Source of the DNA: an uncultured Gammaproteobacteria bacterium
Lineage (GTDB): Bacteria > Patescibacteriota > Microgenomatia > UBA12405
Assembly: GCA_964463925.1 (NCBI GenBank)
Contig: CAYXDV010000001.1
Span: 12,276-76,275, forward strand
DNA: 64,000 nt
Direction of reading: 5' to 3'
In this document: positions 8,277-59,340 of the stretch, in pieces
Layout of the letters: every line of letters starts with the position of its first letter
Position numbering within the stretch: position 1 is the stretch's first letter
Notes under the pieces: model-generated
The model's input: the letters and a program-made list of their open reading frames with translations, nothing else
Told to the model about the DNA's origin: nothing
The model's database searches: none
Position numbers and translations under genes: made by a program

Positions 8277-8726
8277 ATGTTGTGCCCATACTGCGGATTT
8301 GATGAAAGTAACGTTTTGGAAAGTAGGGATGCAGTGGATGGAAAAGCGATTAGACGAAGACGAGAATGTGTAAAATGCCATAAAAGATTCACAACTTATG
8401 AGGAAGTAAAACAAATTGATTTGAGAGTGATAAAACGTGATGGGGAAATTGAGGACTATAGCCGTGGTAAACTGGAAAAATGTTTTGACAAGGCTTGCTG
8501 GAGAAATACTCCAGAAGAAAGGGCAAAATTTGTGGAGGAGGTCGAGATGAAACTTTTAAATTGGCCAAGTGTGGAGATTCCCAGCGCGGAAATTGGTAAG
8601 CTGGTGATGGAGCTACTAAAGCGGGTAGACGATTTGGCTTATATCCGCTTTGCCACAGTATTTTTGCGACTAGATAAAGTAGAGGATTTTGAGAAGTTGG
8701 TAAAAAAGTTTAAAAAGAGAAGCTAG
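8277..8726 (+). CDS. nrdR: transcriptional repressor NrdR
   Basis: N-terminal zinc ribbon (MLCPYCGFDESNVLESR...CVKCHKRFTTYE) followed by an ATP-cone. Confidence 0.9.
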   Translation: MLCPYCGFDESNVLESRDAVDGKAIRRRRECVKCHKRFTTYEEVKQIDLRVIKRDGEIEDYSRGKLEKCFDKACWRNTPEERAKFVEEVEMKLLNWPSVEIPSAEIGKLVMELLKRVDDLAYIRFATVFLRLDKVEDFEKLVKKFKKRS

Positions 8727-9247: not shown

Positions 9248-9248
9248 G

Positions 9249-10001: not shown

Positions 10002-10056
10002 ATAGACAAAGTATAGTACTATGCCAGCAATTGTGCAAACAGGTGTAGAATGAAGT

Positions 10057-10776
10057 ATGAAAAAAATAATAGTTTTATTGCTAGTTTTAGGGTTATTGGG
10101 TGGGCTGTGGTATCGAGGAGGCGGTAGTTGGGGGAGCATGACCTGGCTTCCTGCCAAAACAGTGACTGTAATGGGTGAAGCAAAAGGACAAACACAAAAC
10201 CAAATAGCCACCTTTTCAGCTGGGGTAAATGTAATAAAAGAAAATAAAGATGAAGCTACTAAAGAACTAAACCAAAGAATGGATCAGTTGGTTGAAATTG
10301 TTAAAAAATTTGGAATAAAAAGTGAGGATATCAAAACTACCAGTATGAGCTTGTATCAAAATCAAGATCCTTACTGGGACAATGGAATTCAAAAATATAG
10401 ACCAGGAAATTGGAATGCTAGTTCAAATATTGAAATAACTTTAAGAGAAATTAATAGAGCAACTGAGCTGATGAGTCAACTTACCAGTACTGGAGCAAAC
10501 AATGTTTATGGTCCTAACTTTCAAGCTGATAACACTTTGGAATTTGAAAAAGGGCTAATGGAAGAAGCGGTGAAGAATGCAACTGATAAGGCAACTAATT
10601 TAGCAAGGGTTAGTGGGCGACAGCTTGGAAAAATTGTGTCTATTAATGAACTTGGTGCTAACAATAGTGGGGTAATGTATGCAGCTGATATGGGTGGAAG
10701 GGGAGGAGGAGGACCAATGGAACCCGGAAGCCAAACTGTTTCCAAATCGCTTACTGTGGTGTTTGAGTTGAAATAA
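10057..10776 (+). CDS. SIMPL-domain (DUF541) periplasmic/immunogenic-protein family
   Basis: Signal/TM N-terminus; SIMPL-like pattern (ATFSAGVNVIKENKDEATKELNQRMDQLVEIVKKFGIK...DIKTTSMSL); Gly-rich tail. Confidence 0.7.
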   Translation: MKKIIVLLLVLGLLGGLWYRGGGSWGSMTWLPAKTVTVMGEAKGQTQNQIATFSAGVNVIKENKDEATKELNQRMDQLVEIVKKFGIKSEDIKTTSMSLYQNQDPYWDNGIQKYRPGNWNASSNIEITLREINRATELMSQLTSTGANNVYGPNFQADNTLEFEKGLMEEAVKNATDKATNLARVSGRQLGKIVSINELGANNSGVMYAADMGGRGGGGPMEPGSQTVSKSLTVVFELK

Positions 10777-19292: not shown

Positions 19293-19395
19293 ATCTTGAT
19301 TTATCGTTTTCGGCTTCTTTTTGCCTCATCAGTACGAGAATTGGTTTACTCGTAAAACGATATTCCACACACAACAAAGAAAGGAAATCACCAGA

Positions 19396-19445
19396 AGACA
19401 CGCAGAGAGGCAAGCCAGGAAGGCTTGGGGGTCCTCTCTGCGTGT
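19396..19445. repeat. long perfect hairpin (14-bp stem, nested inner stem) just downstream of the lipoprotein gene
   Basis: GACACGCAGAGAGG-CAAGCC-AGGAA-GGCTTG-GGGGT-CCTCTCTGCGTGTC. It lies in a local GC-rich segment. Confidence 0.5.
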
Positions 19446-19465
19446 CAAGCGGTGGTCATGTGACA

Positions 19466-20251
19466 CTACTTGCAGGACTTGGCCGCCCGTTGCTCTTCGA
19501 GCCAAGGCGCAACGACGCCGGTTGTGACTTTGCCATCAGAAGGTGCGTTCTTTAGCATGCAGCTGGAAAATTTAGTGCCATCCGACAAAACAATGCCGAC
19601 GCCGATGACAGTGTCACCTTTCTTGAAGTTCAAAGTCTTGCCGTCGCCTGTAGCTTGGCGTTCTGAATTGACTTGCGCGGCAGGCTTGGCAGGTGATGTG
19701 GCTGTAGGCTGTTCGGCTTGCTGGGTTGAACCGGTTGGTGGATACAAGTGAGCATGTGCCCAACTGTATTTAACAGCTTCACCAACCCTAAAGTCGTATT
19801 CGTCCTTCAGCCATTCGCTCTTAACCACACTAACGAAACCGTCCTTCACTGTGACACTGAAGTCGCTTGTGTATGTCTTATAGACACCGCCTGCAACGTT
19901 ATCCACTGTGAAGCCGCCAACAACCGCAGCGGTTCCGGGGATCAACTTGATCCTCCAGGTCTTCTGTGGTGCGTCGGTTCCACTTTCCGGATCCCATTTA
20001 CCCGTTTCCAGGTACATGGAAGGATGTGCCACGTATGGTTGCGGCTGCAGGTCATACAGTTGCCCGTTTTCGGCACGGGTGGCGGCGGGGATAGGCGCTG
20101 GTGCGGCGGTTGTCGTAGTCGTGATGACGCTGGTCGCTGAGGCGGCCGGCGTGTCGCTACGAGTTGCGGTGGCGCCAGAAGCGCCGCCGCAACCGGCTAG
20201 GAGCAGTATTGCTCCGGCCGCCATCACAGATAGAAATATTTTGTTTTTCAT
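19466..20251 (-). CDS. lipoprotein of unknown function, compositionally foreign (high GC)
   Basis: Signal peptide with lipobox (...ILLLAGCGG); Thr/Ala-rich linker; GC about 55-60% against a 38-40% background. RBS aaggag sits 8 nt upstream of the ATG. Confidence 0.7.
   Translation of the reverse strand: MKNKIFLSVMAAGAILLLAGCGGASGATATRSDTPAASATSVITTTTTAAPAPIPAATRAENGQLYDLQPQPYVAHPSMYLETGKWDPESGTDAPQKTWRIKLIPGTAAVVGGFTVDNVAGGVYKTYTSDFSVTVKDGFVSVVKSEWLKDEYDFRVGEAVKYSWAHAHLYPPTGSTQQAEQPTATSPAKPAAQVNSERQATGDGKTLNFKKGDTVIGVGIVLSDGTKFSSCMLKNAPSDGKVTTGVVAPWLEEQRAAKSCK
20221..20251. repeat. left copy of a 31-bp imperfect inverted repeat (covers the first 10 codons of the lipoprotein gene)
   Basis: The reverse complement ATGAAAAACAAAATATTTCTATCTGTGATGG matches AAGAAAAACAAAATATTTCTGTCAGTGATGG at 21011-21041 at 27 of 31 positions, in the same codon phase. 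Confidence 0.55.
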
Positions 20252-20285
20252 TTTTTCTCCTTTTTTTGTTTTTTGTTTTGATTTT

Positions 20286-20339
20286 GGTATTAGAACCCAG
20301 CTATCCCCATACTAATGGGAAGAATTGGGTTCTAATACC
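20286..20339. promoter_or_regulatory. 14-bp perfect inverted repeat (GGTATTAGAACCCA/TGGGTTCTAATACC) upstream of the lipoprotein gene
   Basis: Spacer of 26 nt. Further palindromes lie nearby: TAACACgcaatGTGTTA about 20406-20422, GTGGCAAtTTGCCAC 20443-20457 and ATCTGTaaaaACAGAT about 20518-20533. Confidence 0.4.
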
Positions 20340-20659
20340 TCAAAAACTTAGAAAAGAAGAATTATTGTTGTGTGTGGAATGTAAAGGAACTTCTGGGTCA
20401 CTTGGTTAACACGCAATGTGTTAGAAAGTAAAAACCAGAGGAGTGGCAATTTGCCACCCAAAAACTAACTTAAATTAGCTTTTGGCTGACAAAATGTTTT
20501 TTACTTAAAGGTGCGAATCTGTAAAAACAGATTATGGGTAAGTATAGCAATTAAAGCCTAAATTGTCAAGTTATAGGACTTAAGAAATTTATATGTAGGT
20601 AGCTTGGGTAAAATTTAATGTCGTGAAAAACATGATTCGTTTGGTTCAATTAGAAACTC

Positions 20660-21091
20660 TTGTTGATATACTCAATTATGGCTAAGGACTTTAAGGTTAA
20701 AAGGCGAGTATGGTTGACATATGATTTATGGAGGAAAGATGGGATTTATTGCCCTGCATTGAAATCTAGAGTAAGAGTATCGTTACTTGGCTGGAGACAT
20801 ATTACTGGAGCTACTGGCCACAAAAAACGTTCTTTTGGAGATGTATACAGACGTTTAAAACTATTGCCCTATGCAAAAGAGATTTTAGAAGAGTCGACCA
20901 ACATACAAGATATAAGTATCAGAAATAGTCGTACTTTTTATGCATTTGAGGCTATGAAATTAATTGGTAGTGTATGGATTAAAGTACGAGTTGTATTGAT
21001 CGAAGATGCTAAGAAAAACAAAATATTTCTGTCAGTGATGGATCGGAAAAAGAAAAACGGAGCACCTCACGCTTCGGTTGTTAAACGTTAG
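20660..21091 (+). CDS. hypothetical protein; its C-terminal 10 codons (KNKIFLSVMD) duplicate the lipoprotein signal-peptide start
   Basis: 143-aa ORF with a basic N-terminal half and no recognised family. The 3' end contains the right copy of the inverted repeat (21011-21041). Confidence 0.45.
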   Translation: MLIYSIMAKDFKVKRRVWLTYDLWRKDGIYCPALKSRVRVSLLGWRHITGATGHKKRSFGDVYRRLKLLPYAKEILEESTNIQDISIRNSRTFYAFEAMKLIGSVWIKVRVVLIEDAKKNKIFLSVMDRKKKNGAPHASVVKR

Positions 21092-48837: not shown

Positions 48838-48875
48838 AAAGAAGGGAGGAGAGTGATCTCCCCCCTTCTTTTGTT
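48838..48875 (+). terminator. hairpin plus T-run (plus orientation) at the convergent gene junction
   Basis: GAAGGGAGGAgagtgatcTCCCCCCTTC followed by TTTTGTT. Confidence 0.4.
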
Positions 48876-51042
48876 AATTGGATTTGGGTTTGCCCCAGCG
48901 TTCTTGGGATACACGAACTAAGCGTTCCCGACCTTGATTTTTGCATTCTAGAGGTGGAAGGGTAGTAGCGTAGAAGGGTTCTTGAGTTTGAGAATCAATG
49001 GAAAGCTTGGCTAGAATTTGATATTTACCAATTTTAACTAGGTCTTCGGCTGGGAAGTTGGGACCAAATTCGCGGGTAAGAATGGCGGCATCCTGGGAGC
49101 CTACAACGTAGGAAAGCAGTGTACCAACATTTCCTAAAATGGCATCTTGAATGGTTCGATCCAGCTGGGACATGTACTGGTTAGCAACAATTAGATTTAG
49201 CCTAAATTTACGGGCTTCGGAAAGAATTTTGATAAAGGCTTCGGTAGCAAAGTTTTGAAACTCATCGACATACAAATAAAAATCTTTACGTTCATCTGTA
49301 GCTAAATGAACCCGATTCATGGCAGAAAGTTGGATTTGGGTGATGAGCATGGCACCCAAAAGGGCACTATTGTCTTCGCCTAGCCGCCCTGTAGATAAAT
49401 CGGCAATCAGGATTTTGCCTTCATTCATTATCTGTTCAACGTTGACCTTGCTTTTGGCCTGAGAAACGGTGTTGCGAATATTACTACTAGATAGGAATTG
49501 ACCGACTTTGTTGAGAATTGGAGAAATGGCCTCAATTTGCAATTTTTGGTCCATTTTTTCAAATTCATACTGCCAAAAGTTTAAAAGAGTTGGCGGAATA
49601 CCTGGGGTGGCAAGTAACTTTTTGCGATAGGCAGAATTGGTAAGCAAATCAATAATATTTCCAAGGTGAGTATTGGGTGCATAAACCAGAGTCAAAATAG
49701 TATTGCGTAGAATATGTTCAAGCCTGGGTCCCCAGGAGGTATTTCCGTATAATTTTTTAAAAATTGAAACTACCCCCGAGGCTACTAATTCCCGTTGAGA
49801 ATCTGAATAGATTTCTAGGACATTTAGGGGATATATATAATCTGGGTCGGCTGGATTAAAATAGCAGGTATCGTTGACCCGGGAGCTGGGGATGTAATCT
49901 AGGATAGTTTGGGATAAATCGCCGTGGGGGTCGATAATGGCTACGCCTTTGCCCTTGCGGATATCGTCTACCGCCATGTTGGCAATGAGGGTGGTTTTTC
50001 CGGTTCCCGATTTACCAATGATATAAGTGTGTCGGCGCCGGTCTTCGCCATCTCGAATGCCAAAAATGGTTTCTTTGTTCCTGAATTCAGTTTTGGCAAA
50101 ATAGGTGGTTTGGTTTTTTTCTTCGGTGGTGGCGTTGGTGGCTACTGGTAAATTCTCGGGAGGATCGGCATAAAGAGTTTTTCCCCAAGCGATATTAGGT
50201 AGTTTTGTTAGCTTGGTTGGCGGATGCCACAAGAGGGCTAACTCTTCGCTATTAAGGATTTGTTTTTTTAAACGGCGACGAAGCTGGCGATTTTTTAAAC
50301 TGGAAATTAGGGTGGGTTTGACTAGGGGATTTGGGAGGCTTGACAAGAGCAGGTTGCCCCTAGGGTTGCTATAAATTCCAAAGGAAGAAGTAACGGCGGT
50401 TAGCAAAACGGGATTGGTAGAGGCCAAATTAATCTGGCAAACCAGACCTGGAAACTGGATTTTTTGTTCAAAAATCTGCCGATCAGGATGCGGTTGCCGT
50501 AGATTTTTGGTAGCATCTATTACAATTCCGTTTTGGATTAAAGAAAAAGTGTGATTTTGCCAGGAAGAAGAAGCTGGAGAAAGTAATATTTGGTAAAGGA
50601 AAAAATCCTGATTTTGACTGCTGCGCGAGAGGGGGGCCAAAACAGAAGTAAGCGGATCGACTTCCCGAAATTCTTTGGCGGATTTGAGCGGATAGGAGGC
50701 ATTTTTACTAAAAGCCATTTGGGCAAGGGACAATTTGGAAAAGTCCAAAGAATTCAAATAATCTTCTTTTGGTTCTAAAAAAAGGGCAGTGGGAAACTGG
50801 CCTAAAAACTGAGATTTTATATATTCAGATAGGTTAGGAGGAGCTAAAATATAAAAATGGATTTGCCCCTGGGATAGGACAATTTCTAAGGAAGTGAGTA
50901 AATGGTGGTGCTTAAAAATTTTTTCAGAAAAAGTTTTTTTGAGGCTGTGGGTTAGGGTAGCAAAAAAGGAGTTGGCCGATTCTATAGTATATTCATTATT
51001 TTGGGGCAAACGGACTTCGTAGCAAATTAGGGCAGAAGACAT
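48874..51042 (-). CDS. FtsK/HerA/TraD-superfamily P-loop ATPase (VirB4/T4CP-like; AAA-like DUF87 type)
   Basis: Walker A IIGKSGTGKTTL near the middle; Walker B-like FYLYVDEFQNFATE; then ...RKFRLNLIVANQYMSQL. No TM segments. About a 320-aa N-terminal domain of unknown function. Confidence 0.6.
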   Translation of the reverse strand: MSSALICYEVRLPQNNEYTIESANSFFATLTHSLKKTFSEKIFKHHHLLTSLEIVLSQGQIHFYILAPPNLSEYIKSQFLGQFPTALFLEPKEDYLNSLDFSKLSLAQMAFSKNASYPLKSAKEFREVDPLTSVLAPLSRSSQNQDFFLYQILLSPASSSWQNHTFSLIQNGIVIDATKNLRQPHPDRQIFEQKIQFPGLVCQINLASTNPVLLTAVTSSFGIYSNPRGNLLLSSLPNPLVKPTLISSLKNRQLRRRLKKQILNSEELALLWHPPTKLTKLPNIAWGKTLYADPPENLPVATNATTEEKNQTTYFAKTEFRNKETIFGIRDGEDRRRHTYIIGKSGTGKTTLIANMAVDDIRKGKGVAIIDPHGDLSQTILDYIPSSRVNDTCYFNPADPDYIYPLNVLEIYSDSQRELVASGVVSIFKKLYGNTSWGPRLEHILRNTILTLVYAPNTHLGNIIDLLTNSAYRKKLLATPGIPPTLLNFWQYEFEKMDQKLQIEAISPILNKVGQFLSSSNIRNTVSQAKSKVNVEQIMNEGKILIADLSTGRLGEDNSALLGAMLITQIQLSAMNRVHLATDERKDFYLYVDEFQNFATEAFIKILSEARKFRLNLIVANQYMSQLDRTIQDAILGNVGTLLSYVVGSQDAAILTREFGPNFPAEDLVKIGKYQILAKLSIDSQTQEPFYATTLPPLECKNQGRERLVRVSQERWGKPKSN

Positions 51043-51892
51043 AGTTGATTATAGGGGAGGTGTGGGCCTGTGTCGAGGTTGCATATGTGCTGTGTTAGAA
51101 GCGATAGTATTTATCTACTAGATTGGTGGGGGATGGGAGTTTAAGATGGAGTATGGCTGGTGGTAAAGATAAGGAAAAGAAAGGACTGGGGATTGGGGAA
51201 ATGCAAGGGCGAGGGTGGCTTCCCGGGTGGGGTGTAAGAGATAAAAGTGCTATGGGTGGTTTGTTGGTTGCAGCTTTTGGACAAGGTGGCGGAGTGGAAA
51301 AATCAGAGCCCGTCAAAAGATATAGTTTTCCGGAACCTGCTATTGAGACTCCAAATGAGAAAGAAGGGGACAAGCCAGTACAACTAGGCTTGGGCCTGTG
51401 GCTGGAACACTAAACTAATTATAGGCTTGATTTTTCAAATAAATGGGTTATAATAAGTCATTTTAGGTATAAAAATAGCCCTAGAAAAACCAAAGTCATA
51501 GCGATTTTGGAATTGTCTTTGGCTGTTCTTTAACATTCTGGACTCAATTAACCTTGGGTGGGGTTGTGGGAGAAGTAAATTACTTTTGCCATAACTCCAT
51601 CCAAGGAGGTGGAAAATACGTAATTAAATAAAAAATCATCTAAACTCCTACTCGGAAAACCAAAAAACAAGTAAAAAACAAGCCAAGTAAGAACAAAATG
51701 AAATATTTTAGTAAATTTGCCACCGGCAAAAGAGGAATGCGCTCTATCAGACGTGCAGTCAAAGATCGCTGCCGTCGTTTTAGGGGATCTGCGGTTAGCC
51801 TTGTAATCCAATCCCCAACACTCGATGCGGCGCAATTGCCGAGTCCCAAGGTTCCGTTGGGAAAGTTACCTAGGAAACCTTAGGGCGTTTTT

Positions 51893-51922
51893 ATCGTGTG
51901 CGGGCTTTCGCCCGCACACGAT
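51893..51922. repeat. perfect 13-bp-stem hairpin flanked by a GGCGTTTTTA direct repeat
   Basis: ATCGTGTGCGGGC-TTTC-GCCCGCACACGAT. GGCGTTTTTATCGTGTG lies immediately 5' and AAGGCGTTTTTAGTGTG lies 3'. Confidence 0.45.
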
Positions 51923-52235
51923 AAGTCAGAATTTAATAAAAGGCGTTTTTAGTGTGCCAGTTGGCAAAAATTGAAAAAGAAAAAATTGAGTCCAGAATGT
52001 GTTTATATCTATACATAATTGGATGAATATATTTCAATATAAAAGCAAGAATTTTTAAGAGCTGTGTACTATACGGTGGAAGGAGGTGGTAGATTTAGAT
52101 TGAAAGTCGGACCGTTTTCCAAATCTGTGGAATTGCAGGCAATCGATGCGGTGAAAGGGGATAGACAAGCTACAGATAGAATGGAATGGTTTTTTGGTAG
52201 CAGATAAAAAACACTCGGTGTTTTGGTAGCTATAC

Positions 52236-52263
52236 TTGACAAACCTAACTTTTTGGATATAAT
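52236..52263 (+). promoter_or_regulatory. consensus sigma70 promoter (TTGACA-N16-TATAAT)
   Basis: TTGACA at 52236-52241 and TATAAT at 52258-52263. The downstream ATG at 52273 is about 3 nt from the predicted TSS, so the mRNA is leaderless or nearly so. Confidence 0.55.
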
Positions 52264-52272
52264 ATATGTTAT

Positions 52273-52731
52273 ATGAGTCTAAAAGAAACAATAATGGGTT
52301 GGGTTTGCGAAAGAAGAGGTTTTCCAGTTCTGGATAAAACTGTTTTTTTATCTAATAATACTGATGAGGCGATTGCCGGAGCCTTAGGTCAAGCTTATCA
52401 GGCTGTTGTTGGTTCTGGGTTAAGAGTAGACGAAACAAGCCTATATAACGCACTTGCAGGCGCTCGGCATGCTCTTGTGCGTCTACGAGGGGATACTCTT
52501 TTATCTGACGGTACTGGTTCGGTTAATGTTATGATGTCTCATAAGGGTTCTGTTACTGCGAGAGTAGCTGGTTTTAATATCTGGTCTATGTCTGGCATAC
52601 AGATTAATGGATGTGAGAGATATGCCCGATCTGAAAGGCCTGAATCTCTTACTCCAGATGAGTCTGAGGCAGTTGCCAATTTCAAAAATCTGGCAAATTG
52701 TGGACAGACTATTAGTAATGATCCGTGGTAA
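52273..52731 (+). CDS. hypothetical protein (first of three co-directional small genes)
   Basis: 152 aa, soluble, no recognised motif. Intergenic gaps to the next genes are 39 and 5 nt. Confidence 0.5.
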   Translation: MSLKETIMGWVCERRGFPVLDKTVFLSNNTDEAIAGALGQAYQAVVGSGLRVDETSLYNALAGARHALVRLRGDTLLSDGTGSVNVMMSHKGSVTARVAGFNIWSMSGIQINGCERYARSERPESLTPDESEAVANFKNLANCGQTISNDPW

Positions 52732-52770
52732 AAATTATAAGTTGATTTTTTGAAAAAAATAAAATAAATT

Positions 52771-53232
52771 ATGCCAGGAACAGCATTAGAGAAATTAGCT
52801 CAAGTTTTTGGTTTAGCAAAGAAAGAAAAGCCAAAAGTGGATCCTAGAATTGTCAGAGCCAAACAATTGGCGAGTAGGGGTCCTTATGGGGCTAACGTGG
52901 GATTTGCAGATGAGGATATTGCTGCAAATGCACAAAGTCAATTGGACTTTAATCCTACCACTGGTGTCTTTGAATCTAGTGACATTTTAACTTCTGGTTT
53001 TAATGCTATTGCTCCTCCAATTGAGGGTGTTGATGACGGTTTTGATCTTTCTGTTCGTATGCAAGCAAAGGCATTTTCCCAGACAGATCCTAGAGATGGT
53101 AGATTATCACATAGAAAAATTGCAGTCGTAATTGAAGGAGGACATGGCTTAAAAGGGTTTGCTGATGCTTATGTTGGTAATAAAATTGTTCCACCTGATC
53201 CTAAACAACCTCCTAAAAAGGGTAAACATTAA
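52771..53232 (+). CDS. hypothetical protein
   Basis: 153 aa, Gly/Asp-rich, Lys-rich C-terminal tail (KQPPKKGKH). Confidence 0.5.
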   Translation: MPGTALEKLAQVFGLAKKEKPKVDPRIVRAKQLASRGPYGANVGFADEDIAANAQSQLDFNPTTGVFESSDILTSGFNAIAPPIEGVDDGFDLSVRMQAKAFSQTDPRDGRLSHRKIAVVIEGGHGLKGFADAYVGNKIVPPDPKQPPKKGKH

Positions 53233-53237
53233 AACTC

Positions 53238-53558
53238 ATGACTAATGTAGATAAGTCTAATAGTGGTTTTAGGGCTTGGTTAGCTGGTTTATTGTCTAAG
53301 GGTGGTTCTAAAGTATTTTTTTCTGATGGACAATTAGCAGCAGGAAGTAGCGTAGAAAAAGGAGGGGAAGAAATTAGGTTTGGATCTGAAGCCCAAGGGA
53401 TTAGAACCACAGTTGAAGTTAATCAAATAATTGCTGCTCAGCTGGGTAAACAGGGAATTCGATTTAGTATCACATCACGGGCAGTTCGGCCCACTGGAGG
53501 TGTAGTTGAGGCTGGAATAAGTAATCAAAGCAGGGGAGTACAACCTAAGAAAAAGTAG
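53238..53558 (+). CDS. hypothetical protein
   Basis: 106 aa, Gly/Ser-rich, basic tail (RGVQPKKK). Confidence 0.5.
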   Translation: MTNVDKSNSGFRAWLAGLLSKGGSKVFFSDGQLAAGSSVEKGGEEIRFGSEAQGIRTTVEVNQIIAAQLGKQGIRFSITSRAVRPTGGVVEAGISNQSRGVQPKKK

Positions 53559-53609
53559 AGCAGATTCAAATACACTCAATTCTGATTTTTTGGAAAAAGT
53601 TTTAAAGAT

Positions 53610-53647
53610 GCAGAGTAGTAGAGGGGGTTTAACCCATTCTACTCTGC
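53610..53647. terminator. hairpin between convergent operons
   Basis: GCAGAGTAG-(20 nt with nested GGGGG/CCC)-CTACTCTGC, with T-runs on the minus-strand side. Confidence 0.4.
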
Positions 53648-53673
53648 ACCTTCTATTCAGTTGTAGACACAGA

Positions 53674-53904
53674 TTATTGGTCGTCCCGTTTCCGGAACGG
53701 CCACATTCCGTCTGGCCAGGTCCTTCTAAAGGATCCTACTAGACCTACGAGGAAAAAAATGACAAGTAGAATGCCAAGGGCCTTATTTACAAAGACCCAT
53801 GGGTCTATGGAATCAAAGATCATCTGGGATGTCAGACATCCTAACCCCTCGAGAAGGATTAGGATATACAGACACCCTTTGTCGCTTTGCTTTCCCCCCT
53901 TCAT
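53674..53904 (-). CDS. small membrane protein (2 TM)
   Basis: 76 aa. Its start overlaps the upstream gene's stop by 4 nt. GC-rich codon usage. Confidence 0.5.
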   Translation of the reverse strand: MKGGKQSDKGCLYILILLEGLGCLTSQMIFDSIDPWVFVNKALGILLVIFFLVGLVGSFRRTWPDGMWPFRKRDDQ

Positions 53905-54218
53905 TTCTTGCCCCCGGCATCAAGCCTCTGGGTTTCCGCCTCAGCGACGGCATTTATGCCGTCGGTGTCCAGACTTTTGACCATTAGTGCTCCAACCCCG
54001 CTGCCTCGGCTCTCCGCCGAGCTTTTCCCCACCTTGGCTTTGAAGGCCGTATGGGAATTGACGAGCACAAATGCGGCGCCGATTAGCCCGAAAATTATCG
54101 TGGCTATCACTAGACTCCCAATTACTGCTTGGGCGATGGGGTCTAGCTGAGGAAATACCAGACCTAATGTAATGACGATTACCATTATGGCAATCGTTTT
54201 AGCAGTGTTGCTGTTCAT
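53901..54218 (-). CDS. small membrane protein (2-3 TM)
   Basis: Begins MNSNTAKTIAIMVIVITLGLVF.... The ATG overlaps the upstream TGA (ATGA). The ORF-track N-terminal extension to 54542 is the Arg-rich antisense of the neighbouring gene and is rejected. Confidence 0.55.
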   Translation of the reverse strand: MNSNTAKTIAIMVIVITLGLVFPQLDPIAQAVIGSLVIATIIFGLIGAAFVLVNSHTAFKAKVGKSSAESRGSGVGALMVKSLDTDGINAVAEAETQRLDAGGKK

Positions 54219-54742
54219 TGTTTTGCTCCTTTTTTCAATTCTTTTTTGGTGTCCGGCCTTGGCCGGACACCTTTGCCCTTGGTTTCCACGCTGGTCTCGC
54301 CAATCTGCACTCGCGAGTATGAGCTGCTCTTGGAGAGCACCCATACCATTAGAGTCAGGACAAATAAGAACCCCTCGCCGGCGAAGATCGCCAGGCAGAG
54401 AGGCTCTTTGGTCAGTAGGTAGGCGACGAGCAGTAGTGCGTTGAAACCGAAGAATCCCATTCCCAGGATTCCGACCCAGGAATGGGAGGTGGCGTGCTGG
54501 ACTGTGCTTCCAGCACCCACCTGTCCGGTGCAGGTGGGGCAAATTCTTTTTCGCGGGAAGAACCTTTCATCGTCTACCCACGGATCGGGTACACTATATG
54601 TATGGCGACATTTTTCACATGTCGCCATTACAGTTTTGTTTTGGTATTTGCGCCTCAATGCCGACTTTCGATTCCCGTCTATCACCCAGACGAAGAATGC
54701 TACGGCAAGGAAAGTGCCCACAGACCCGACAATGTCATTCAT
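54215..54742 (-). CDS. membrane protein with a cytoplasmic zinc-ribbon (CxxC-x23-CxxC)
   Basis: N-terminal TM, then ATCEKCRHTYSVPDPW...RICPTCTG, then 2-3 more TM helices and a Lys-rich tail. Confidence 0.6.
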   Translation of the reverse strand: MNDIVGSVGTFLAVAFFVWVIDGNRKSALRRKYQNKTVMATCEKCRHTYSVPDPWVDDERFFPRKRICPTCTGQVGAGSTVQHATSHSWVGILGMGFFGFNALLLVAYLLTKEPLCLAIFAGEGFLFVLTLMVWVLSKSSSYSRVQIGETSVETKGKGVRPRPDTKKELKKGAKQ

Positions 54743-55080
54743 TGGGTGCCTCCTGTGAAGAAAGTTTGGAAAAACGGTAGCCAGAACAGACTTATGTCTG
54801 CCATGGTGCTTAGGGATGTTTTTCCACTTCTAAATAGTGTGGATAGTATGGTGTCAGCTATTGTTAGTGCAATAGTTGCTATCCAGAAAAAGAAAACATA
54901 GTTACCATATCCACTTATTTGGATTGTTGGCATAAACGGTATGATGTTTCCCTTGTTTTCCATTCTCCACCAAAGCGATAGAAGAATCCAAACAATCATA
55001 CCTATCCTATAAGCCCAGACTGACCTCCAATCTTTAGGATTGTTTTTTGGGGTTATGTCTCTATCCATGTTTCCTCTCAC
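54739..55080 (-). CDS. small membrane protein (3 TM)
   Basis: 113 aa. It overlaps the upstream SPFH gene's 3' end by 20 nt and the downstream gene by 4 nt. Confidence 0.5.
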   Translation of the reverse strand: MRGNMDRDITPKNNPKDWRSVWAYRIGMIVWILLSLWWRMENKGNIIPFMPTIQISGYGNYVFFFWIATIALTIADTILSTLFRSGKTSLSTMADISLFWLPFFQTFFTGGTQ

Positions 55081-55864
55081 TTATTAGTTCATCAATTACG
55101 TGCTGTTCTAATGCCCTTCTTGTGATTTGTTGTCCACCTTCACCGATAAAGGTTACAATTGGTTGTCTTTTGCCTCTGCGTTGTGCCATTTGCGATCTGA
55201 CCGCCAAATCCACCCACCTTATGACGTGGTCTGAATTTCCACCCATCTTACTAAAAGTATCGCCAAGAGCTTTAGCCCTGAAAGCTTCTTGCCCTGCTAG
55301 TGTTCTGGCTGCAAGTTCATCTTTTAGTTCATCTTCGGGCTCTATGTCCGTTAGTTGAATTGCTTCCATTTGCACACCTATAGAGGACGTCTTGTTCGCG
55401 AATGGTTTTAGGTCTGTGGGCGTGATATTTACTCCTTGACCTTCAAGGAAGTCTTTTTCTGCTATTAGAGATCTGACTACATCTCTAGGAGCTTTAGTTA
55501 TTCCAGAGAATAGAGTTTCGTCTTCGACAAGGGCGTATCTCCACTCGTACCTTGGATCGTCTGGAACTGTATAAAATGCAATTCCTGCTACTTTAACGGT
55601 GAAGCCATCTTTGGTTACAGCATTTCCCTTGAATTCTGCATCGAATGCGACTACTGGCACTTGACGTTTTCCTCCAGGTTTTTCAAGAAGAGGAATAAAG
55701 AAATGCACTCCCCCAGGGCCAACCATACGATTTGGGGTCCCTAGTCTTAGGATTGCTATTCTAGTGTCTGGAGGTGCCATTATCCAGACTAACCCATTTC
55801 CCAAAAATAGCACCAGCAGTCCAAATACCACTAGCACTATTGGAAAAAGAATTTCACTGTTCAT
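55061..55864 (-). CDS. SPFH/band-7 (stomatin/prohibitin-like) membrane protein, second copy in the window
   Basis: N-terminal TM then ...VPVVAFDAEFKGNAVTKDGFTVKVAGIAFYTVPDDP... SPFH core and a coiled C-terminus. GC about 52%. Confidence 0.75.
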   Translation of the reverse strand: MNSEILFPIVLVVFGLLVLFLGNGLVWIMAPPDTRIAILRLGTPNRMVGPGGVHFFIPLLEKPGGKRQVPVVAFDAEFKGNAVTKDGFTVKVAGIAFYTVPDDPRYEWRYALVEDETLFSGITKAPRDVVRSLIAEKDFLEGQGVNITPTDLKPFANKTSSIGVQMEAIQLTDIEPEDELKDELAARTLAGQEAFRAKALGDTFSKMGGNSDHVIRWVDLAVRSQMAQRRGKRQPIVTFIGEGGQQITRRALEQHVIDELISERKHG

Positions 55865-55879
55865 GTTGTTTCTCCTGTT

Positions 55880-56548
55880 TTAGAAATGTCGTGGTGGGAG
55901 TTTCCCGTCACTCTTCTTTTGTGGATTTTTGATTGTGGCAACAGGTTTGTTGTTAACCAAAGGCAGGTGTTGGGCCATTTTTGCCTTTAATAAACTTGTC
56001 GCCAGTTCCCTGGTATCACTGTCCACACCCTCTTCAGCCAGCTCGGTAAGTGCCTCAATTAGCTCGGGTGTTAGCCTGAGCTCTTGATCGTCGCCACCAA
56101 CCCCTTCGAGCTCTGTGACGACCCTTACCGCCGGATTTTTTGCTGCCCTTTTTTGTTGGGGCTGGACTGGTTCATCAGTAGCGGGAGCATCCTCTTCTTT
56201 CGACCCTTCTGGCTTCCTGAAAAAGCTCAGAATCACCAAACCCACAATTAGCACTCCGGCCACGCCTGCCCCAACAATTGGGTTTTCGGTGGCAGAGTAT
56301 GCGGCCAACCCGGCCGCCAAGGCGAGCACCATCTTGTTAAGGATGGTGTTTTTAAAAAGCAAGTAGATGGCCTGAAAGAGACCACCACTTACTAACGAGA
56401 AGCTCATTTGTGCTTCTGGAAAAATCCTAAAAGTTTCATTTAGCGTTGGAAACGCTACGAATCCAATTAGGCTTCCCACGAGCCATGGACCAATGATTTT
56501 GAATAGCCATTTTGGGACTCCGTCCCTGATGGCCTGACGGGTATTCAT
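55880..56548 (-). CDS. membrane protein (4 TM) with an acidic C-terminal domain
   Basis: First gene of the minus-strand operon; 222 aa; no OB/NfeD-like signature seen. Confidence 0.5.
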   Translation of the reverse strand: MNTRQAIRDGVPKWLFKIIGPWLVGSLIGFVAFPTLNETFRIFPEAQMSFSLVSGGLFQAIYLLFKNTILNKMVLALAAGLAAYSATENPIVGAGVAGVLIVGLVILSFFRKPEGSKEEDAPATDEPVQPQQKRAAKNPAVRVVTELEGVGGDDQELRLTPELIEALTELAEEGVDSDTRELATSLLKAKMAQHLPLVNNKPVATIKNPQKKSDGKLPPRHF

Positions 56549-56623
56549 TTTTTCTCCTTTTGGCCATTGGGGCAGGGCCCCTTTGGTACTATTTTGGTAC
56601 TATTATGATGATTGGTTGTTTTT

Positions 56624-56836
56624 GGTTTACACCAAGCAGGGGATAAGAGGGGAGGTTATCCGCTAGTTGGTGTAAACCAAATAGGAGTTTTCGTTTGTCT
56701 ACAACTGAATGTTAAAGAACATAGTGGCTTTGTTTAGGCGCTATGCCTAATTAAAGTCACTTACGTTTCCGTTTGCGTAGATACGCAAACAGGCCCAAAG
56801 TCTAGTTGCAGATGCAGTAGAACTTGAGCCTGTTTG
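56624..56836. promoter_or_regulatory. inverted-repeat-rich non-coding region upstream of the membrane operon
   Basis: GGTTTACACCAA...TTGGTGTAAACC (12-bp IR, 56624-56678); GTTTGCGTA-gat-ACGCAAAC (56771-56790); CAAACAGGC...GCCTGTTTG (56786-56836); direct repeat GGTACTATT x2 (about 56586-56603). Confidence 0.45.
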
Positions 56837-56933
56837 CATGGATGATTATACCCTATAATAACCAAAATTGCAAGTTGTGGTCAACAGACTTGAGAAGCTT
56901 GACACAGAAAACCCGAGGATTATAATATAGGTT

Positions 56934-57188
56934 ATGGGTAAAGATAAAATTGGTGGTGCTGTTGCTGCCTGTTTGGTATTTGGATTATTGGAGTTAGGAT
57001 CGCCTGGAGGACCATTGTTGCCAACTATTAGGAAGGTATTATGTGGTCCTATTCCTACTCAAAATTGTGGTAACTTGTCCAGAACTGTGGCAGAGGGACT
57101 AGATGCCGTGATTGCCTATTTTACTGGTGGAGTTATAGTAAGAAGGGCAATAGGACAGTCGAGTGGTGAGGGAGAAAAAAAGCACTAA
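56934..57188 (+). CDS. hypothetical small membrane protein
   Basis: 84-aa ORF with one hydrophobic segment; weak. Confidence 0.3.
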   Translation: MGKDKIGGAVAACLVFGLLELGSPGGPLLPTIRKVLCGPIPTQNCGNLSRTVAEGLDAVIAYFTGGVIVRRAIGQSSGEGEKKH

Positions 57189-57256
57189 TTGGCTCGTCGT
57201 GTTATAATCCCTAGTTAATTTTATTTATTTAACTTTAGCCGGGAGTTTCCTGGACT

Positions 57257-58171
57257 TTGTCCAAACCGGTGATAAAAAAGGAAAATATGAAAAAAGTGAG
57301 TAATAAAGTAATTGATTTGAGGGAAGATAAGGATAAATCGAAATTAGTGATGAAGGACAAGAAGGAAGCAGTAGCCGAGAAGAACGAAGAGATTTTACAA
57401 AAAAAGAGTAAAAAAGTATTGGCAGGGGCAGTAACTAAAAAAGAAGTAGCAAAAACAAAAGTAGAAGATGTGGCGGAAACCAAAGAAGATGCTTATGAAC
57501 TGGGAATTGGACTTGAAGAAATGCTAAAAGCCGGTTGCCATTTGGGCCACAAAATTTCTAAAACCAACCCTAAAGTAACTGACTATTTGTATGGTAAAAA
57601 AGATGGAATTGCGGTAGTGGATTTGCCTAAAAGCTATGCTGATTTGCAAAAAGCCTGCGCTTTTGTGCACCAATTAGCCAAAGAAGGTAAAACTATTTTA
57701 TTTTTGGGTACAAAAAGATCGGCTAGAGAAGTAGTTCGACGAGTGGCAGGAGAATGTGGAATGCCTTTTGTGAGTAATCGCTGGCCAGGTGGAGCTATTT
57801 CTAACTGGGAGCAAATAAGAAAATCCATAAAATCAATGAATGAGACGGCTAGTAGATTAGAAAAAGGAGTAGAGGGGGCAACTAAAAAAGAGATTTCTGT
57901 AATGAGAAAAAATTTAGTTAGAACTCAGACTATGTTTGGGGGAATGTCTAAAGTAGAAAAAATGTTTGATGCAATGTTTGTAGTAGATATTACCCATGAA
58001 AAAACTGCCTTAAAAGAGGCAAAACTACACAAAATACCCATAGTGGCTTTGGTAGATACCGATAGTAATCCAGGTTTAGTTGACTATCCAATTGTGGTTA
58101 ACGATGACTCGGTTAAATCAGTAACCCTGATTGTAGAAGAAGTTGGCAGAGCAATTGCTAACAAAAAATAA
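57257..58171 (+). CDS. rpsB: 30S ribosomal protein S2 with a Lys/Glu-rich N-terminal extension
   Basis: ...MLKAGCHLGHKISKTNPKVTDYLYGKKDGIAVVDLPKSYADLQKA... is the S2 core, preceded by about an 80-aa charged extension. Confidence 0.9.
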   Translation: MSKPVIKKENMKKVSNKVIDLREDKDKSKLVMKDKKEAVAEKNEEILQKKSKKVLAGAVTKKEVAKTKVEDVAETKEDAYELGIGLEEMLKAGCHLGHKISKTNPKVTDYLYGKKDGIAVVDLPKSYADLQKACAFVHQLAKEGKTILFLGTKRSAREVVRRVAGECGMPFVSNRWPGGAISNWEQIRKSIKSMNETASRLEKGVEGATKKEISVMRKNLVRTQTMFGGMSKVEKMFDAMFVVDITHEKTALKEAKLHKIPIVALVDTDSNPGLVDYPIVVNDDSVKSVTLIVEEVGRAIANKK

Positions 58172-58196: not shown

Positions 58197-58655
58197 ATGG
58201 ACGTAAAAAAACTATTAGAACTAACAAAAAAAATTAGGGAAGAGACTGGCTATGGAATAATGGATATCAAAAAGGCATTAGAAGAAACTGAAGGCGATGA
58301 AACAAAGACTTTGGAAATTTTGAAAGCTAAGGGTGTACTAGCTGCTGCTAAGCGCGCCGAGCGAGAAACTAAACAAGGATTGGTGGTATCTTATAACCAT
58401 TTTACTGGAAAGATGGGCGCAATGGTAGAGCTTTTGTGTGAAACTGATTTTGTGGCCCAAAATCCAGAGTTTATGGCGCTTGCCAAAGAGCTGGTGTCAC
58501 ACGTAGCAGCAGTTGCTCCTGAATCTCCAGAAGTTATGTTGGAGCAAGAATTTGTAAAGGATCCAACTAAAAAGATCAAAGACATGATAACTGAATTAAC
58601 TGGAAAATTGGGTGAAAATATACGCCTTGGAAGAATTGCCAGATTAGAGATTTGA
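58197..58655 (+). CDS. tsf: elongation factor Ts (short form)
   Basis: N-terminal UBA-like region (…IREETGYGIMDIKKALEETEGDETKTLEILKAKG…) and the dimerisation core; 152 aa. Confidence 0.85.
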   Translation: MDVKKLLELTKKIREETGYGIMDIKKALEETEGDETKTLEILKAKGVLAAAKRAERETKQGLVVSYNHFTGKMGAMVELLCETDFVAQNPEFMALAKELVSHVAAVAPESPEVMLEQEFVKDPTKKIKDMITELTGKLGENIRLGRIARLEI

Positions 58656-58663
58656 TCTTGGTA

Positions 58664-58699
58664 AAGTAACATGTTAGTATGAAGTAACATGTTACTAAG
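58664..58699. promoter_or_regulatory. tandem palindromic operator-like sites (GTAACATGTTAG / GTAACATGTTAC) upstream of vapB
   Basis: GTAACATGTTAC is a perfect 12-bp palindrome. An almost identical copy lies 8 nt upstream. Both overlap the start of the RHH antitoxin gene. Confidence 0.5.
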
Positions 58700-58952
58700 T
58701 CACCGCACCAATGTATTGCTAGATACGGAGTTGTACGGTATTTTGCGCGAGCAAAGTAAAAAGACAGGTAAAAGTGTGGGGCAGATTTTGAGAGAAGCTG
58801 CTTTGAAGCAATATGTTAAGAAAAAGAATAAAATTGCAGATAACCCCAAGTTGTTGACATCATTTAGAAAAATTAGAAGGCAAATAAAAGAGTTAGGTGG
58901 CGGCATGACACTTGAAGAAATTTTAAAATATCGAGATGATGGTAGGCGCTAA
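58689..58952 (+). CDS. vapB: antitoxin (RHH/VapB-like)
   Basis: VLLDTELYGILREQSKKTGKSVGQILREAALKQYV is an RHH fold. Its 3' end overlaps the PIN gene by 17 nt. Confidence 0.6.
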   Translation: MLLSHRTNVLLDTELYGILREQSKKTGKSVGQILREAALKQYVKKKNKIADNPKLLTSFRKIRRQIKELGGGMTLEEILKYRDDGRR

Positions 58953-59340
58953 AGTAGTAGTGGATGTTTCGTTTGTGGCGGCGATGATTTTTGAGGTAGA
59001 AAAGCCGGGCTCTGATTTTGAGTCCTTGATTCTGGCTAAAACATTGATGCTAACACCGAGTTTATTTTGGTATGAATTCGGAAATGTATCCTTAAATAAA
59101 TTGAAAAAGGACCCGAATTTTGAGTCTAGATTAAAAATCGGACTAGAGTTTTTAATGAAAATGGATATTAGAACTACAGATTTTGACCAGATTCAAAGGA
59201 ATGAAGTACTAAAGTTGGCGATAAAATATAACCTAACTTATTACGATGCCTCTTATTTATATATGGCTCTAGCCAATCAGTGTAAGCTTTTGACCTTGGA
59301 CTCAAGATTGATTAACGCTTATAATCAGTCTATATGCTAA
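58936..59340 (+). CDS. vapC: PIN-domain toxin (VapC)
   Basis: VVDVSFVAAMIF...; ...YYDASYLYMALANQCKLLTLDSRL is the PIN Asp pattern. Confidence 0.75.
   Translation: MMVGAKVVVDVSFVAAMIFEVEKPGSDFESLILAKTLMLTPSLFWYEFGNVSLNKLKKDPNFESRLKIGLEFLMKMDIRTTDFDQIQRNEVLKLAIKYNLTYYDASYLYMALANQCKLLTLDSRLINAYNQSIC

Follow-up and report, generated by a model that had tools for sequence, protein, structure and literature searches.

SPFH proteins are universal membrane organisers whose bacterial clients are mostly unknown; they build large membrane rings or cages that enclose partner proteins, as in HflK/C–FtsH and QmcA. Their NfeD partners are characterized by transmembrane (TM) segments and a C-terminal OB-fold. 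In this work, we analyzed a six-gene SPFH operon (g1–g6) and the repeats that bound it in 64,000 nt of contig CAYXDV010000001.1 (positions 12,276–76,275; assembly GCA_964463925.1), a stretch referred to below as the window and numbered from its first letter. SPFH–NfeD pairs were described previously (Hinderhofer 2009, PMC2636767), and in B. subtilis the SPFH protein SamI restrains the non-NfeD membrane partners SamG and SamH (bioRxiv 10.64898/2026.02.06.704340). The reading that we favor, and to which we give an even chance of being correct, is that the operon is an accessory SPFH cage–client membrane module whose expression would be gated by a structured leader and a closing helix.

As a protein set, the operon is of a kind already known, of which it represents, with its non-NfeD partners, a new version. 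The operons of stomatin-type SPFH proteins (QmcA–YbbJ) encode proteins that are like g2 in membrane anchor, SPFH domain, and helical tail, and share with the cassette, whose g2 tail is helical by prediction, the linkage to small membrane proteins and a proneness to horizontal transfer, whereas the cassette lacks the NfeD partner of the SPFH–NfeD operons and has five partners instead of one. The HflK/HflC–FtsH system comprises two paralogous SPFH proteins functionally linked to the FtsH protease; in contrast, the cassette contains a single SPFH gene, and FtsH was not found among roughly 60 open reading frames (ORFs) of the window. The B. subtilis membrane-stress operon pspA–samGHI (ydjGHI) resembles the cassette in combining an SPFH protein with non-NfeD integral membrane partners and a zinc-finger element. 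It differs in having a PspA/ESCRT-III gene and a cytosolic SPFH protein that its membrane partners recruit, whereas the cassette yielded no PspA-family match and g2 has its own TM anchor; moreover, the zinc finger of SamGHI is on the SPFH protein, the zinc ribbon of the cassette is on the separate TM protein g4, and no sequence similarity between the two systems was found.

The operon is further characterized by a conserved motif and two complementary arms at its ends, an architecture that it shares with other units described below. In the mRNA of the H. pylori toxin AapA1, a long-distance pairing of the 5′ and 3′ ends keeps the transcript stable and poorly translated until the 3′ end is processed, and the hok mRNA is likewise reported to need 3′ processing (PMC5416894). 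In both AapA1/IsoA1 and hok/Sok (fold-back inhibition), base pairing connects the 5′ untranslated region (UTR) to the 3′ end of an mRNA for a membrane-active protein, as we propose for the units, and in both the helix adjoins the ribosome-binding site and the genes are associated with mobile or variable DNA, as is also the case for the units. However, the peptides of type I toxins are usually under 60 aa, whereas the units carry proteins of 57–342 aa or a whole 3-kb operon, and the pairings in type I toxin mRNAs are extended and imperfect, whereas the units have perfect 14–18-mers plus a conserved 10-nt motif without counterpart there. An antisense RNA antitoxin was not identified for the cassette, for which Rfam returned nothing.

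The six-gene operon and its single relative

All six minus-strand ORFs delineated by the original prediction, which had been made from the letters of the stretch without database searches, were found:

55880–56548, minus strand: g1, 222-aa membrane protein; ORF with an AAGGAG ribosome-binding site
55061–55864, minus strand: g2, 267-aa SPFH/Band-7 protein; PF01145 match
54739–55068, minus strand: g3, membrane protein of 109 aa with ATG 55068 as its revised start
54215–54742, minus strand: g4, 175-aa membrane protein; ATGA overlap with g3
53901–54218, minus strand: g5, 105-aa two-TM protein by hydropathy; ATGA overlap and AAGGAG ribosome-binding site
53674–53904, minus strand: g6, 76-aa two-TM protein with a charged C-terminus; ATGA overlap

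Each of the six proteins has between one and four hydrophobic segments by hydropathy, in agreement with their initial description as TM proteins. The translational coupling proposed at the same time is supported by the gene overlaps and by the ribosome-binding sites: 4-nt ATGA overlaps connect g3/g4, g4/g5, and g5/g6, AGGAG-type sites precede g1, g2, g4, and g5, and the spacing between g1 and g2 is 15 nt. The three 4-nt overlaps had been predicted correctly, whereas the fourth one, a 20-nt overlap of g2 and g3, would require a GTG start at 55080. An ATG at 55068 is preceded by a GAGAGG ribosome-binding site, and the independent gene call of the Logan assembly likewise makes g3 109 aa long; the g3 start is most likely this ATG, with an 8-nt overlap (ATGGATAG) instead of the 20-nt one. 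Judging from these features, the six genes are genuine, translationally coupled, and form one operon.

The g1 protein consists of an N-terminal four-helix TM domain followed by an acidic, poorly conserved cytoplasmic tail; its AlphaFold2 model, built from a two-sequence alignment and of low confidence (predicted local distance difference test, pLDDT, of 50.5), places helices at residues 13–40, 46–66, 68–87, and 90–110. In g2, an N-terminal TM anchor (segment 4–22 by hydropathy) is followed by the SPFH domain and a C-terminal third predicted to be helical, the helices at 178–266 appearing only in a low-confidence single-sequence AlphaFold2 model (pLDDT 38.5). The order of elements in g4 by hydropathy is TM1, CxxC…CxxC, TM2, and TM3, which bears out the predicted membrane protein with a ribbon, and this zinc ribbon is presumably on the positively charged, cytoplasmic side. 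Charged C-termini are present in both g5 and g6, which are small two-TM proteins.

The SPFH domain is the only domain identified in the cassette. The g2 protein matches the Pfam family Band_7 (PF01145) with an E-value of 9.4e-15 and 55.5 bits (cut-off 23.6) over profile positions 3–167 of 176, as anticipated for a second SPFH/band-7 protein, and is very divergent. Its closest solved structure is E. coli QmcA (8z5g, an entry with 26 chains; E 2e-4), its best non-self match in a full HMMER search of 1.84 billion representatives has an E-value of 2e-5 and 27% identity, and its identity to any SPFH protein does not exceed about 34%, in partial alignments with E-values of 2e-5 or weaker. The canonical SPFH gene of the window is at 9249–10211 (Band_7 E 2.8e-43). 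In that region (8723–10211), the housekeeping SPFH gene is followed by an ORF with matches to the Phd/YefM antitoxin and the ParE toxin, not by NfeD, and a SIMPL/DUF541 gene (10057–10776) overlaps on the opposite strand.

The proteins g1 and g3–g6 had no matches in Pfam, PHROGs, PADLOC, and NCBIfam; neither NfeD nor any other Pfam family was found for them at threshold (g4 included) or even at E ≤ 1, so the view of these partners as not NfeD-like stands. For g1, the PDB gave zero matches as well, and PDB sequence searches with g4 and with a g1 profile yielded nothing meaningful. Assignment to a known defence system, suggested initially, found no support in PADLOC-DB 2.0, with 0 matches at E ≤ 0.1 for ten proteins (nine island proteins and p84). 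The holin-like lysis cassette suggested as another option was likewise not borne out: no PHROG match was below E = 0.001, the Pfam scan revealed no lysin domain, and no cassette relatives were detected in IMG/VR, JGI metagenome contigs, INPHARED phages, or PLSDB plasmids.

A word-indexed search of 5.8 billion clusters with g2, g1, and g4 as queries returned self matches and a single g1 homolog, and among about 15 billion proteins the cassette has one relative, the syntenic 2,976-bp Logan contig L037, so that two copies are known. The L037 homolog of g1 (P0036) is 54% identical to it across residues 1–114, that is, the four-helix N-terminal domain, and this N-terminal conservation supports the 222-aa start of g1. 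The SPFH protein of L037 (266 aa; Band_7 E 1.5e-5, 25.6 bits) is 27% identical to g2 in a partial alignment. The similarity of g3 to its counterpart is weak (27%), one segment of g3 exceeding the hydropathy threshold versus three in L037, whereas g4 and its homolog (28% identity, E 1.4e-12) have all four cysteines in common. The last gene of L037 (57 aa) shares with g6 its position and the N-terminal motif GCLxxLIxL[DE]. No g5 counterpart was found on L037, which marks g5 as accessory. The synteny of L037, together with matching TM topology, Cys4 ribbon, and per-gene GC content overall and at third codon positions (GC3), argues that the genes are real; paired values for the window and L037 are 0.49 and 0.51 for g1, 0.44 and 0.44 for g2, 0.39 and 0.40 for g3, and 0.52 and 0.51 for g4.

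A second operon faces g6:

52273–53558, plus strand: p152–p153–p106, convergent operon of soluble orphan proteins

L037 contains a p106 homolog (36–38% identity) and the C-terminus of a p153 homolog in the same convergent arrangement, and p153 and p106 are thus co-conserved with the SPFH cassette. From this two-copy comparison, the conserved core comprises g1 (4-TM), g2 (stomatin/QmcA-like SPFH), g3, g4 (TM and zinc ribbon), and g6, and the conserved module as a whole is seen as p153–p106 facing g6–g4–g3–g2–g1 convergently, in a tiny family of very fast-evolving proteins.

The GC content of the operon (53674–56548) is 47.3%, with single genes varying between 39 and 52% and the remainder of the window being at 38%. 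The value of 52–55% given earlier was too high, 54–58% being reached in 300-nt peaks only. The proposed horizontal acquisition holds insofar as the cassette is accessory and acquired, being absent from 34 syntenic loci, many of them with an empty site; composition by itself argues for it only weakly, as the per-gene GC/GC3 pattern is a family trait shared with L037.

The variable hotspot and its repeat-bounded units

The operon and its convergent neighbors occupy a variable site:

51043–57256, no strand assigned: strain-specific hotspot fill, delimited by synteny and gap sizes in 34 related loci

The left flank is a virD4/TraG-like ATPase gene (48874–51042), and the right flank is formed by rpsB–tsf–(vapBC)–frr–rseP. 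A scan of species-representative genomes for the ATPase gave 34 loci, most of them 62–71% identical, and those with informative titles belong to Candidatus Shapirobacteria or another Patescibacteria group. The gene order PBP2–topA–ATPase…rpsB–tsf–frr–rseP is kept in the related loci, and the gap between the ATPase gene and rpsB is 290–700 bp in about 14 genomes, 1–5.3 kb or more in others, and 6.2 kb here. The nine island proteins have no homolog in any of the 34 related loci, and the cargo found at this site elsewhere is unrelated and mostly orphan. The variation in gap size and the absence of the island proteins from the 34 loci therefore define a variable hotspot in which the operon is strain-specific cargo. 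The operon appears to be an accessory, horizontally exchanged transcription unit of a Candidatus Shapirobacteria genome, about 3.07 kb long (56720 to 53655, minus strand). The junctions recur over 20.3 kb at 99.98% identity in the Logan assembly of SRR12404947, which was produced with a second assembler and whose four mismatches are all outside the island, and a JGI sample contains an identical 1,087-bp island piece (window 52088–53174), which makes an assembly chimera, considered earlier as a source of the GC shift, very unlikely.

Several other features of this site were observed. The stretch 51095–51413, between the ATPase promoter and the first unit, is G-rich, with a GC skew of up to 0.59, and contains a 96-aa ORF (51123–51413) without a family match. 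An RHH–PIN (VapBC-like) pair (58689–59340) is inserted between tsf and frr, and since the tsf–frr gap in relatives (loci L004, L013, and L033) ranges from about 70 bp to 2.5 kb, this is a second small variable site. Outside the window, about 4 kb to its left, there is a 93-aa HTH_17/MerR-type (excisionase-like) gene (L039 9385–9666), and no integrase adjoins it within the 10 kb covered.

The ends of the operon and of two more units in the window are formed by the following elements:

56711–56720, minus strand: motif GTTCTTTAAC, in the leader, directly 5′ of arm X
56696–56710, minus strand: X, sense strand ATTCAGTTGTAGACA, the 5′ arm of a perfect inverted repeat of 15 nt, located 147 nt upstream of g1
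53655–53669, minus strand: X′, the 3′ arm (sense strand TGTCTACAACTGAAT), located between the g6 stop (4 nt away) and the terminator hairpin (2 nt away)
53605–53652, no strand assigned: predicted bidirectional terminator hairpin between g6 and the convergent p106
51525–52000, plus strand: second window unit, with the motif followed by a 17-nt arm and, after 434 nt, by its partner
19362–20390, minus strand: third window unit, with the motif variant GTTCCTTTAC and the 16-nt perfect arm pair ATTCCACACACAACAA

In all three window units, the upstream arm adjoins GTTCYTTWAC. The X′ arm is conserved in L037 at 13 of 15 positions, and the terminator structure is kept there with a different sequence. 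The unit at 51525–52000 has no convincing ORF, only a 61-aa basic one without a ribosome-binding site, and contains a strong hairpin (51891–51924); it may represent a non-coding RNA, for which Rfam gave nothing. The unit at 19362–20390, located 31 kb from the hotspot, carries a 261-aa lipoprotein-like gene (19466–20251) with a GC content of 55%. An 18-nt perfect inverted repeat (20232–20249 / 21013–21030; 26 of 28 when extended) covers codons 1–9 of this gene (KNKIFLSVM), and the same peptide is present near the 3′ end of the ORF 20660–21091; this repeat looks like a gene-fusion inversion site of the type known from Mollicutes. Leftward of the window, a search of the adjoining 10 kb gave no convincing further copy of the motif.

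A total of 612 kb of Shapirobacteria sequence contains 11 exact copies of the motif GTTCTTTAAC. At eight of these sites (8/11), it is followed at an offset of −2 to +1 by a 14–18-nt arm whose perfect reverse complement lies 0.4–3 kb downstream, whereas a perfect partner, with the threshold set at 14 nt or more, was present at none of 495 control sites obtained with 300 permuted control motifs. When two motif mismatches were allowed, the set increased to 14 units in 11 genomes, including the window's own. All units outside the window (11/11) are located in the ATPase–rpsB hotspot and read away from the ATPase gene, with up to two motif-bearing units per hotspot in a single orientation and other genes between them. 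Loci with further units are L001, L005, L011, L013, L015, L020, L021, L022, L024, and L028, which hold eleven units and two decayed ones.

The cargo of the units is unrelated and often of higher GC content. All seven clear ORFs are on the sense strand of the motif, and six of these seven units encode membrane proteins with TM segments, the seventh being the lipoprotein unit; cargo proteins of the units other than the operon are 116–342 aa long. The arm sequence differs among the units with complementarity being kept, and the outer six nucleotides of X are semi-conserved (A-N-Y-C-T-G). The units L020 6894 and L028 1059 have homologous arms with a compensatory one-base indel (A6/T6 versus A5/T5). 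Promoter-like boxes are located upstream of the motif, a terminator is directly past X′ in five units, and a Shine–Dalgarno (SD) sequence is found 3–6 nt past the arm in L005, L001b, L013, and L022. The last two of these, of which L013 is orthologous to L005, are the decayed units and have imperfect arms, whose internal mismatches (4/4) are all sense-strand G·U pairs, none being antisense. In an RNA cofold of the window operon, X and X′ form 15 of 15 pairs (−21 kcal/mol), and cofolding of the 5′ with the 3′ region gave a complete helix in eight units (−20 to −26 kcal/mol). We infer that both arms lie on one transcript.

Comparison of L005 with empty sites demonstrated an insertion that begins about 150 nt before the motif, taking in promoter and leader, and ends 4 nt past X′. 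As the inserted DNA extends beyond both arms, these do not form its ends, and their interpretation as terminal inverted repeats was rejected; since empty sites are without the motif, it is not a resident attachment site. The insertion of genes into a pre-existing hairpin (loop insertion) was also dismissed, as compact forms were not found, and the motif was not accepted as a sigma-70 −10 box, no matching −35 box being visible. In the literature, the motif string was encountered only in unrelated contexts, e.g., primers, and no description of the motif-plus-closing-helix architecture was found; judging from comparative sequence evidence, it may represent a new class of element.

The leader of the operon

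Upstream of g1, the remaining elements of the predicted leader are as follows:

56845–56884, minus strand: two overlapping sigma-70-like promoter matches, TTGCAA-17-TATAAT and TTGACC-18-TATTAT (consensus scan only), from which the operon would be transcribed
56771–56837, minus strand: two distal leader hairpins, one a 9+9 palindrome and the other with 20-nt arms; a GTTTGC segment is common to both
56734–56750, minus strand: short hairpin TTAGGC-N5-GCCTAA, 13 nt upstream of the motif
56621–56681, minus strand: main leader hairpin, whose 26-nt arms are 88% complementary and include a perfect stretch of 15 nt
56549–56620, minus strand: proximal leader with an 11-nt tandem repeat (56582–56603), the conserved ACCAAAGGGGCCCTGCCCCAATGGC element, and the SD sequence

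The leader would be about 290 nt long if the predicted promoters are used. A similar short hairpin precedes the motif in most units, and the SD sequence of g1 is predicted to pair with a CUCCU anti-SD at 56683–56687. The main hairpin and a 25-nt element before the SD sequence are nearly identical in L037 (the hairpin arms being identical), despite a protein identity of 27–54%, and the fold of the leader has a z-score of −5.65 relative to shuffled sequences. The window contains 11 perfect inverted repeats with a length of 15 nt or more, five of them within the island, versus about 1.6 in shuffles. One such repeat, of 15 nt, connects 57541–57555 (inside rpsB) with 58447–58461 (inside tsf) and is probably due to chance, since about 1.6 pairs of this kind are expected per window. 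No Rfam match was obtained in the island at gathering and E-value thresholds.

The upstream region is indeed repeat-dense, as first described, with hairpins with 26-nt and 20-nt arms, the 9+9 palindrome, and the 11-nt tandem repeat. Its comparison with an oriT/att region, by contrast, gives way to that of a predicted transcribed leader with divergent promoters, hairpins, motif, and anti-SD; because it is conserved in L037 and strongly folded, the region is regarded as a constrained regulatory leader. An oriT would be marked by a relaxase gene and by a nic site beside an inverted repeat; the relaxase was not found, and the neighboring virD4-like gene belongs to the chromosome, being conserved in all 34 relatives whether or not cargo is present. 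No recombinase or relaxase was detected in the roughly 60 window ORFs scanned, which also speaks against the earlier suggestion that the operon is the envelope part of a mobile element.

Each arm of the main hairpin bears a TTGGT-N4-ACCAA palindrome, and the window has no exact TTGGTN4ACCAA site besides these two. Palindromes of the form TTGGT-N4/5-ACCAA are at 56622–56635, at 56667–56680, and just upstream of the motif in L024, and seven TTGGT/ACCAA pentamers are clustered within about 120 nt of the operon leader. Such palindromes could be operator sites for a DNA-binding regulator, instead of or besides RNA structure.

Two perfect consensus promoters (TTGACA-16-TATAAT) with a near-identical context are located at 52236–52263 and 56899–56926. 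They end 7–9 nt before the ATG of p152 and of an 84-aa ORF (56934–57188), respectively, and this short distance suggests leaderless or near-leaderless mRNAs.

Explanations considered and their implications

According to the explanation that we favor, g2 would oligomerise to a membrane-anchored SPFH ring or cage, which would enclose or restrain the co-translated g1 and g3–g6 as clients; this arrangement is proposed because the SPFH family builds partner-enclosing rings and cages and because of the SamI precedent. Expression would be controlled at the RNA level by the leader of about 290 nt, in which the short hairpin, the single-stranded motif GUUCUUUAAC, X, the conserved hairpin, and the anti-SD/SD pairing would follow each other. 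X would pair perfectly with X′ just past the last stop, closing the mRNA by a helix between its 5′ UTR and 3′ end, and this closing helix, the leader hairpin, and the anti-SD would together hold the mRNA stable and poorly translated until processing or a trigger. A helix in mRNA is favored because the mismatches of the decayed units are all sense-strand G·U, the cargo is strictly sense-oriented, and the cofolds are complete. The output, which is the weakest step, could be envelope stress buffering or a conflict function (abortive infection, exclusion); rapid divergence, rarity, and the hotspot location make us lean toward a conflict role.

Several points weigh against this explanation. Promoters and terminators were assigned from consensus matches only, and the oligomerisation of the SPFH protein and its binding of clients are taken from family knowledge, the AlphaFold2 models of g2 and g1 (pLDDT 38.5 and 50.5) being unusable. 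Twelve of the 14 helices are strictly Watson–Crick with sharp ends, which is unusual in RNA and would fit DNA-level copying or recombination, and the G·U argument amounts to four mismatches in two units. The 13 of 14 helix positions that change on both sides do not constitute an independent count of covariation, as the units were partly selected for perfect repeats. A terminator-like hairpin precedes X′ in the window units win1 and win3 and in L005 and L013, and a 3-kb closing helix is far longer-range than known precedents. Finally, the L037 contig begins 11 nt downstream of X, so any partner of its X′ would lie outside the contig; this upstream arm is predicted to be X of the AGTTGTAAACT type, compensating the two X′ substitutions.

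Two alternatives operate at the DNA level. Sharp-edged, perfect, unit-specific repeats of 14–18 bp are typical of invertons, in which short, perfect, locus-specific inverted repeats surround a promoter-distal segment of a surface or membrane gene, and the units have promoter-like boxes outside the repeat and membrane or surface proteins as cargo. A trans-acting recombinase could accordingly flip the units between X and X′, a fixed upstream promoter turning them ON or OFF and diversifying the envelope of an episymbiont; the repeat over the first nine codons of the lipoprotein gene, comparable to the gene-fusion inversions of Mollicutes (Ureaplasma example, PMC3047005), would agree with such switching. 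We consider inversion unlikely, however, as all seven clear-ORF units are in the sense orientation, L037 is oriented like the window, no inverted cargo was seen between genomes, and two assemblies of the window's strain display no break or variant at the repeats. Moreover, the conserved motif adjoins one arm only, which makes the two sites unequal, the decayed units have mismatches of the RNA-type wobble, and a recombinase, relaxase, or transposase was found neither in the roughly 60 window ORFs nor among the precomputed Pfam entries for 10 kb outside the window. The interlinked repeats A–D were also considered as a four-site shufflon or as a series of recombination products; this was rejected, since A and D have only the motif in common and the arm pair is specific to each unit. 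The other DNA-level alternative is cassette capture, integron-like or HUH/rolling-circle-like, in which promoterless cassettes with an X′/X palindrome in their circular form would be inserted in one orientation next to GTTCTTTAAC, into an array beside the virD4-like ATPase gene. It would account for the location of all 11 outside units in one hotspot, reading away from the ATPase gene, for up to two units per hotspot in one orientation with unrelated cargo often of higher GC content, for the SD sequence and gene directly after X in L005, L001b, L013, and L022, as in compact cassettes, for the semi-conserved outer 6 nt of X, for the end of the L005 insertion 4 nt past X′, and for the strictly Watson–Crick complementarity. 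Integron cassettes and the pdif modules of Acinetobacter likewise combine unrelated compact cargo, one orientation, a fixed chromosomal site beside a conserved gene, and a short marker sequence, and the reverse complement of the motif (GTTAAAG) resembles the integron core site GTTRRRY and part of the XerD arm of dif sites. However, integrons have IntI, attI, and a 57–141-bp attC, an imperfect palindrome, at the 3′ end of the cassette, whereas in the units no integrase was found, the arms flank the gene, and no GTTRRRY-like box follows X′. The sites of pdif modules are 28 bp long, with a XerC arm, a 6-bp spacer, and the XerD arm TTATGTTAAAT, and are inversely oriented at the module ends (PMC13141974). 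The sequence GAATGTTAAAG matches this XerD arm at 8 of 11 positions, but the conserved first T is changed, the window site has neither a XerC-like arm nor dyad symmetry, the partner site has no XerD-like arm, and there is no nearby Xer gene; the dif/Xer reading was rejected for the missing XerC arm and dyad symmetry. Against capture in general, genes for an integrase, a transposase, or a Rep/relaxase were not seen, empty sites are without the motif, motif–X is internal to the L005 insertion, whose left edge is about 150 nt upstream, no compact motif-plus-hairpin ("empty" or circular-junction) forms occur in 612 kb, neither an attC-like R″/L″…L′/R′ site nor a dif-like 11-6-11 site with dyad symmetry is present, and mismatches restricted to G·U fit RNA better. 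Cassette capture is thus also judged improbable.

The remaining alternatives concern the function of the operon. An anti-phage, abortive-infection, or exclusion module, in which the SPFH ring holds pore-forming TM proteins inactive until a trigger causes depolarisation, is compatible with the favored explanation and does not exclude it; on its own we deem it conceivable but rather doubtful. Such a function would agree with the very fast divergence of the two copies with synteny kept, their extreme rarity (2 copies among about 15 billion proteins), the variable island hotspot and atypical composition, the seemingly tight gating of expression suggested by the predicted leader structure, the holin-like size of g5 and g6, and the precedent of an SPFH protein restraining membrane partners (10.64898/2026.02.06.704340). 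On the other hand, PADLOC had 0 matches among the nine island proteins and p84, the cassette has no nuclease, NTPase, or sensor domain, and neither known defence genes nearby nor phage-derived relatives were found. A holin-type lysis cassette, or a prophage or plasmid remnant, would be suggested by the small two-TM proteins g5 and g6 with charged C-termini and by the inserted character of the region, but it is highly improbable in view of the lack of any endolysin, spanin, capsid, terminase, integrase, or replication gene, of PHROG matches below E = 0.001, and of relatives in IMG/VR, INPHARED, and PLSDB. Furthermore, two members of the conserved core, the SPFH protein and the 4-TM protein, are of types not known from lysis cassettes. 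Practically no credence is given to an ordinary housekeeping SPFH operon or to an assembly chimera behind the composition shift: SPFH proteins are common and the window is from a metagenome-assembled genome, but a canonical SPFH gene is already present at 9249–10211, the cassette is missing from the 34 syntenic relatives, the Logan assembly and the JGI piece reproduce the junctions and the island, and units of like architecture fill the hotspot in ten other genomes.

Since the same architecture frames other, unrelated units, we infer that the motif and the unit-specific closing helix may be a general packaging and expression device of the lineage, with the SPFH operon as its largest known cargo. 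More tentatively, and with the balance of probability against it, Shapirobacteria and perhaps other Patescibacteria might carry exchangeable "closed-loop" units composed of a promoter, a short hairpin, GUUCUUUAAC, a unit-specific 14–18-bp helix between 5′ UTR and 3′ end, and mostly membrane cargo, at a hotspot beside the virD4-like/DUF8128 ATPase gene; the signal and helix would then serve as a processing, stability, or translation gate for potentially membrane-toxic cargo, or alternatively as the recognition structure of a new type of cassette capture.

With one SPFH protein co-translated with five candidate clients, the operon offers a compact system to study by what means a cage chooses its membrane proteins and controls them. 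More weight attaches to the flanking architecture, in which a 10-nt motif shared across genera precedes a cassette-specific covarying helix that would close the transcript, as it provides a testable lead to the packaging, regulation, and exchange of accessory envelope genes in ultra-small uncultured Patescibacteria. If the RNA-based explanation is true, the fold-back logic of type I toxin mRNAs would extend to whole operons; if the DNA-based one is, the units would constitute a new cassette system.

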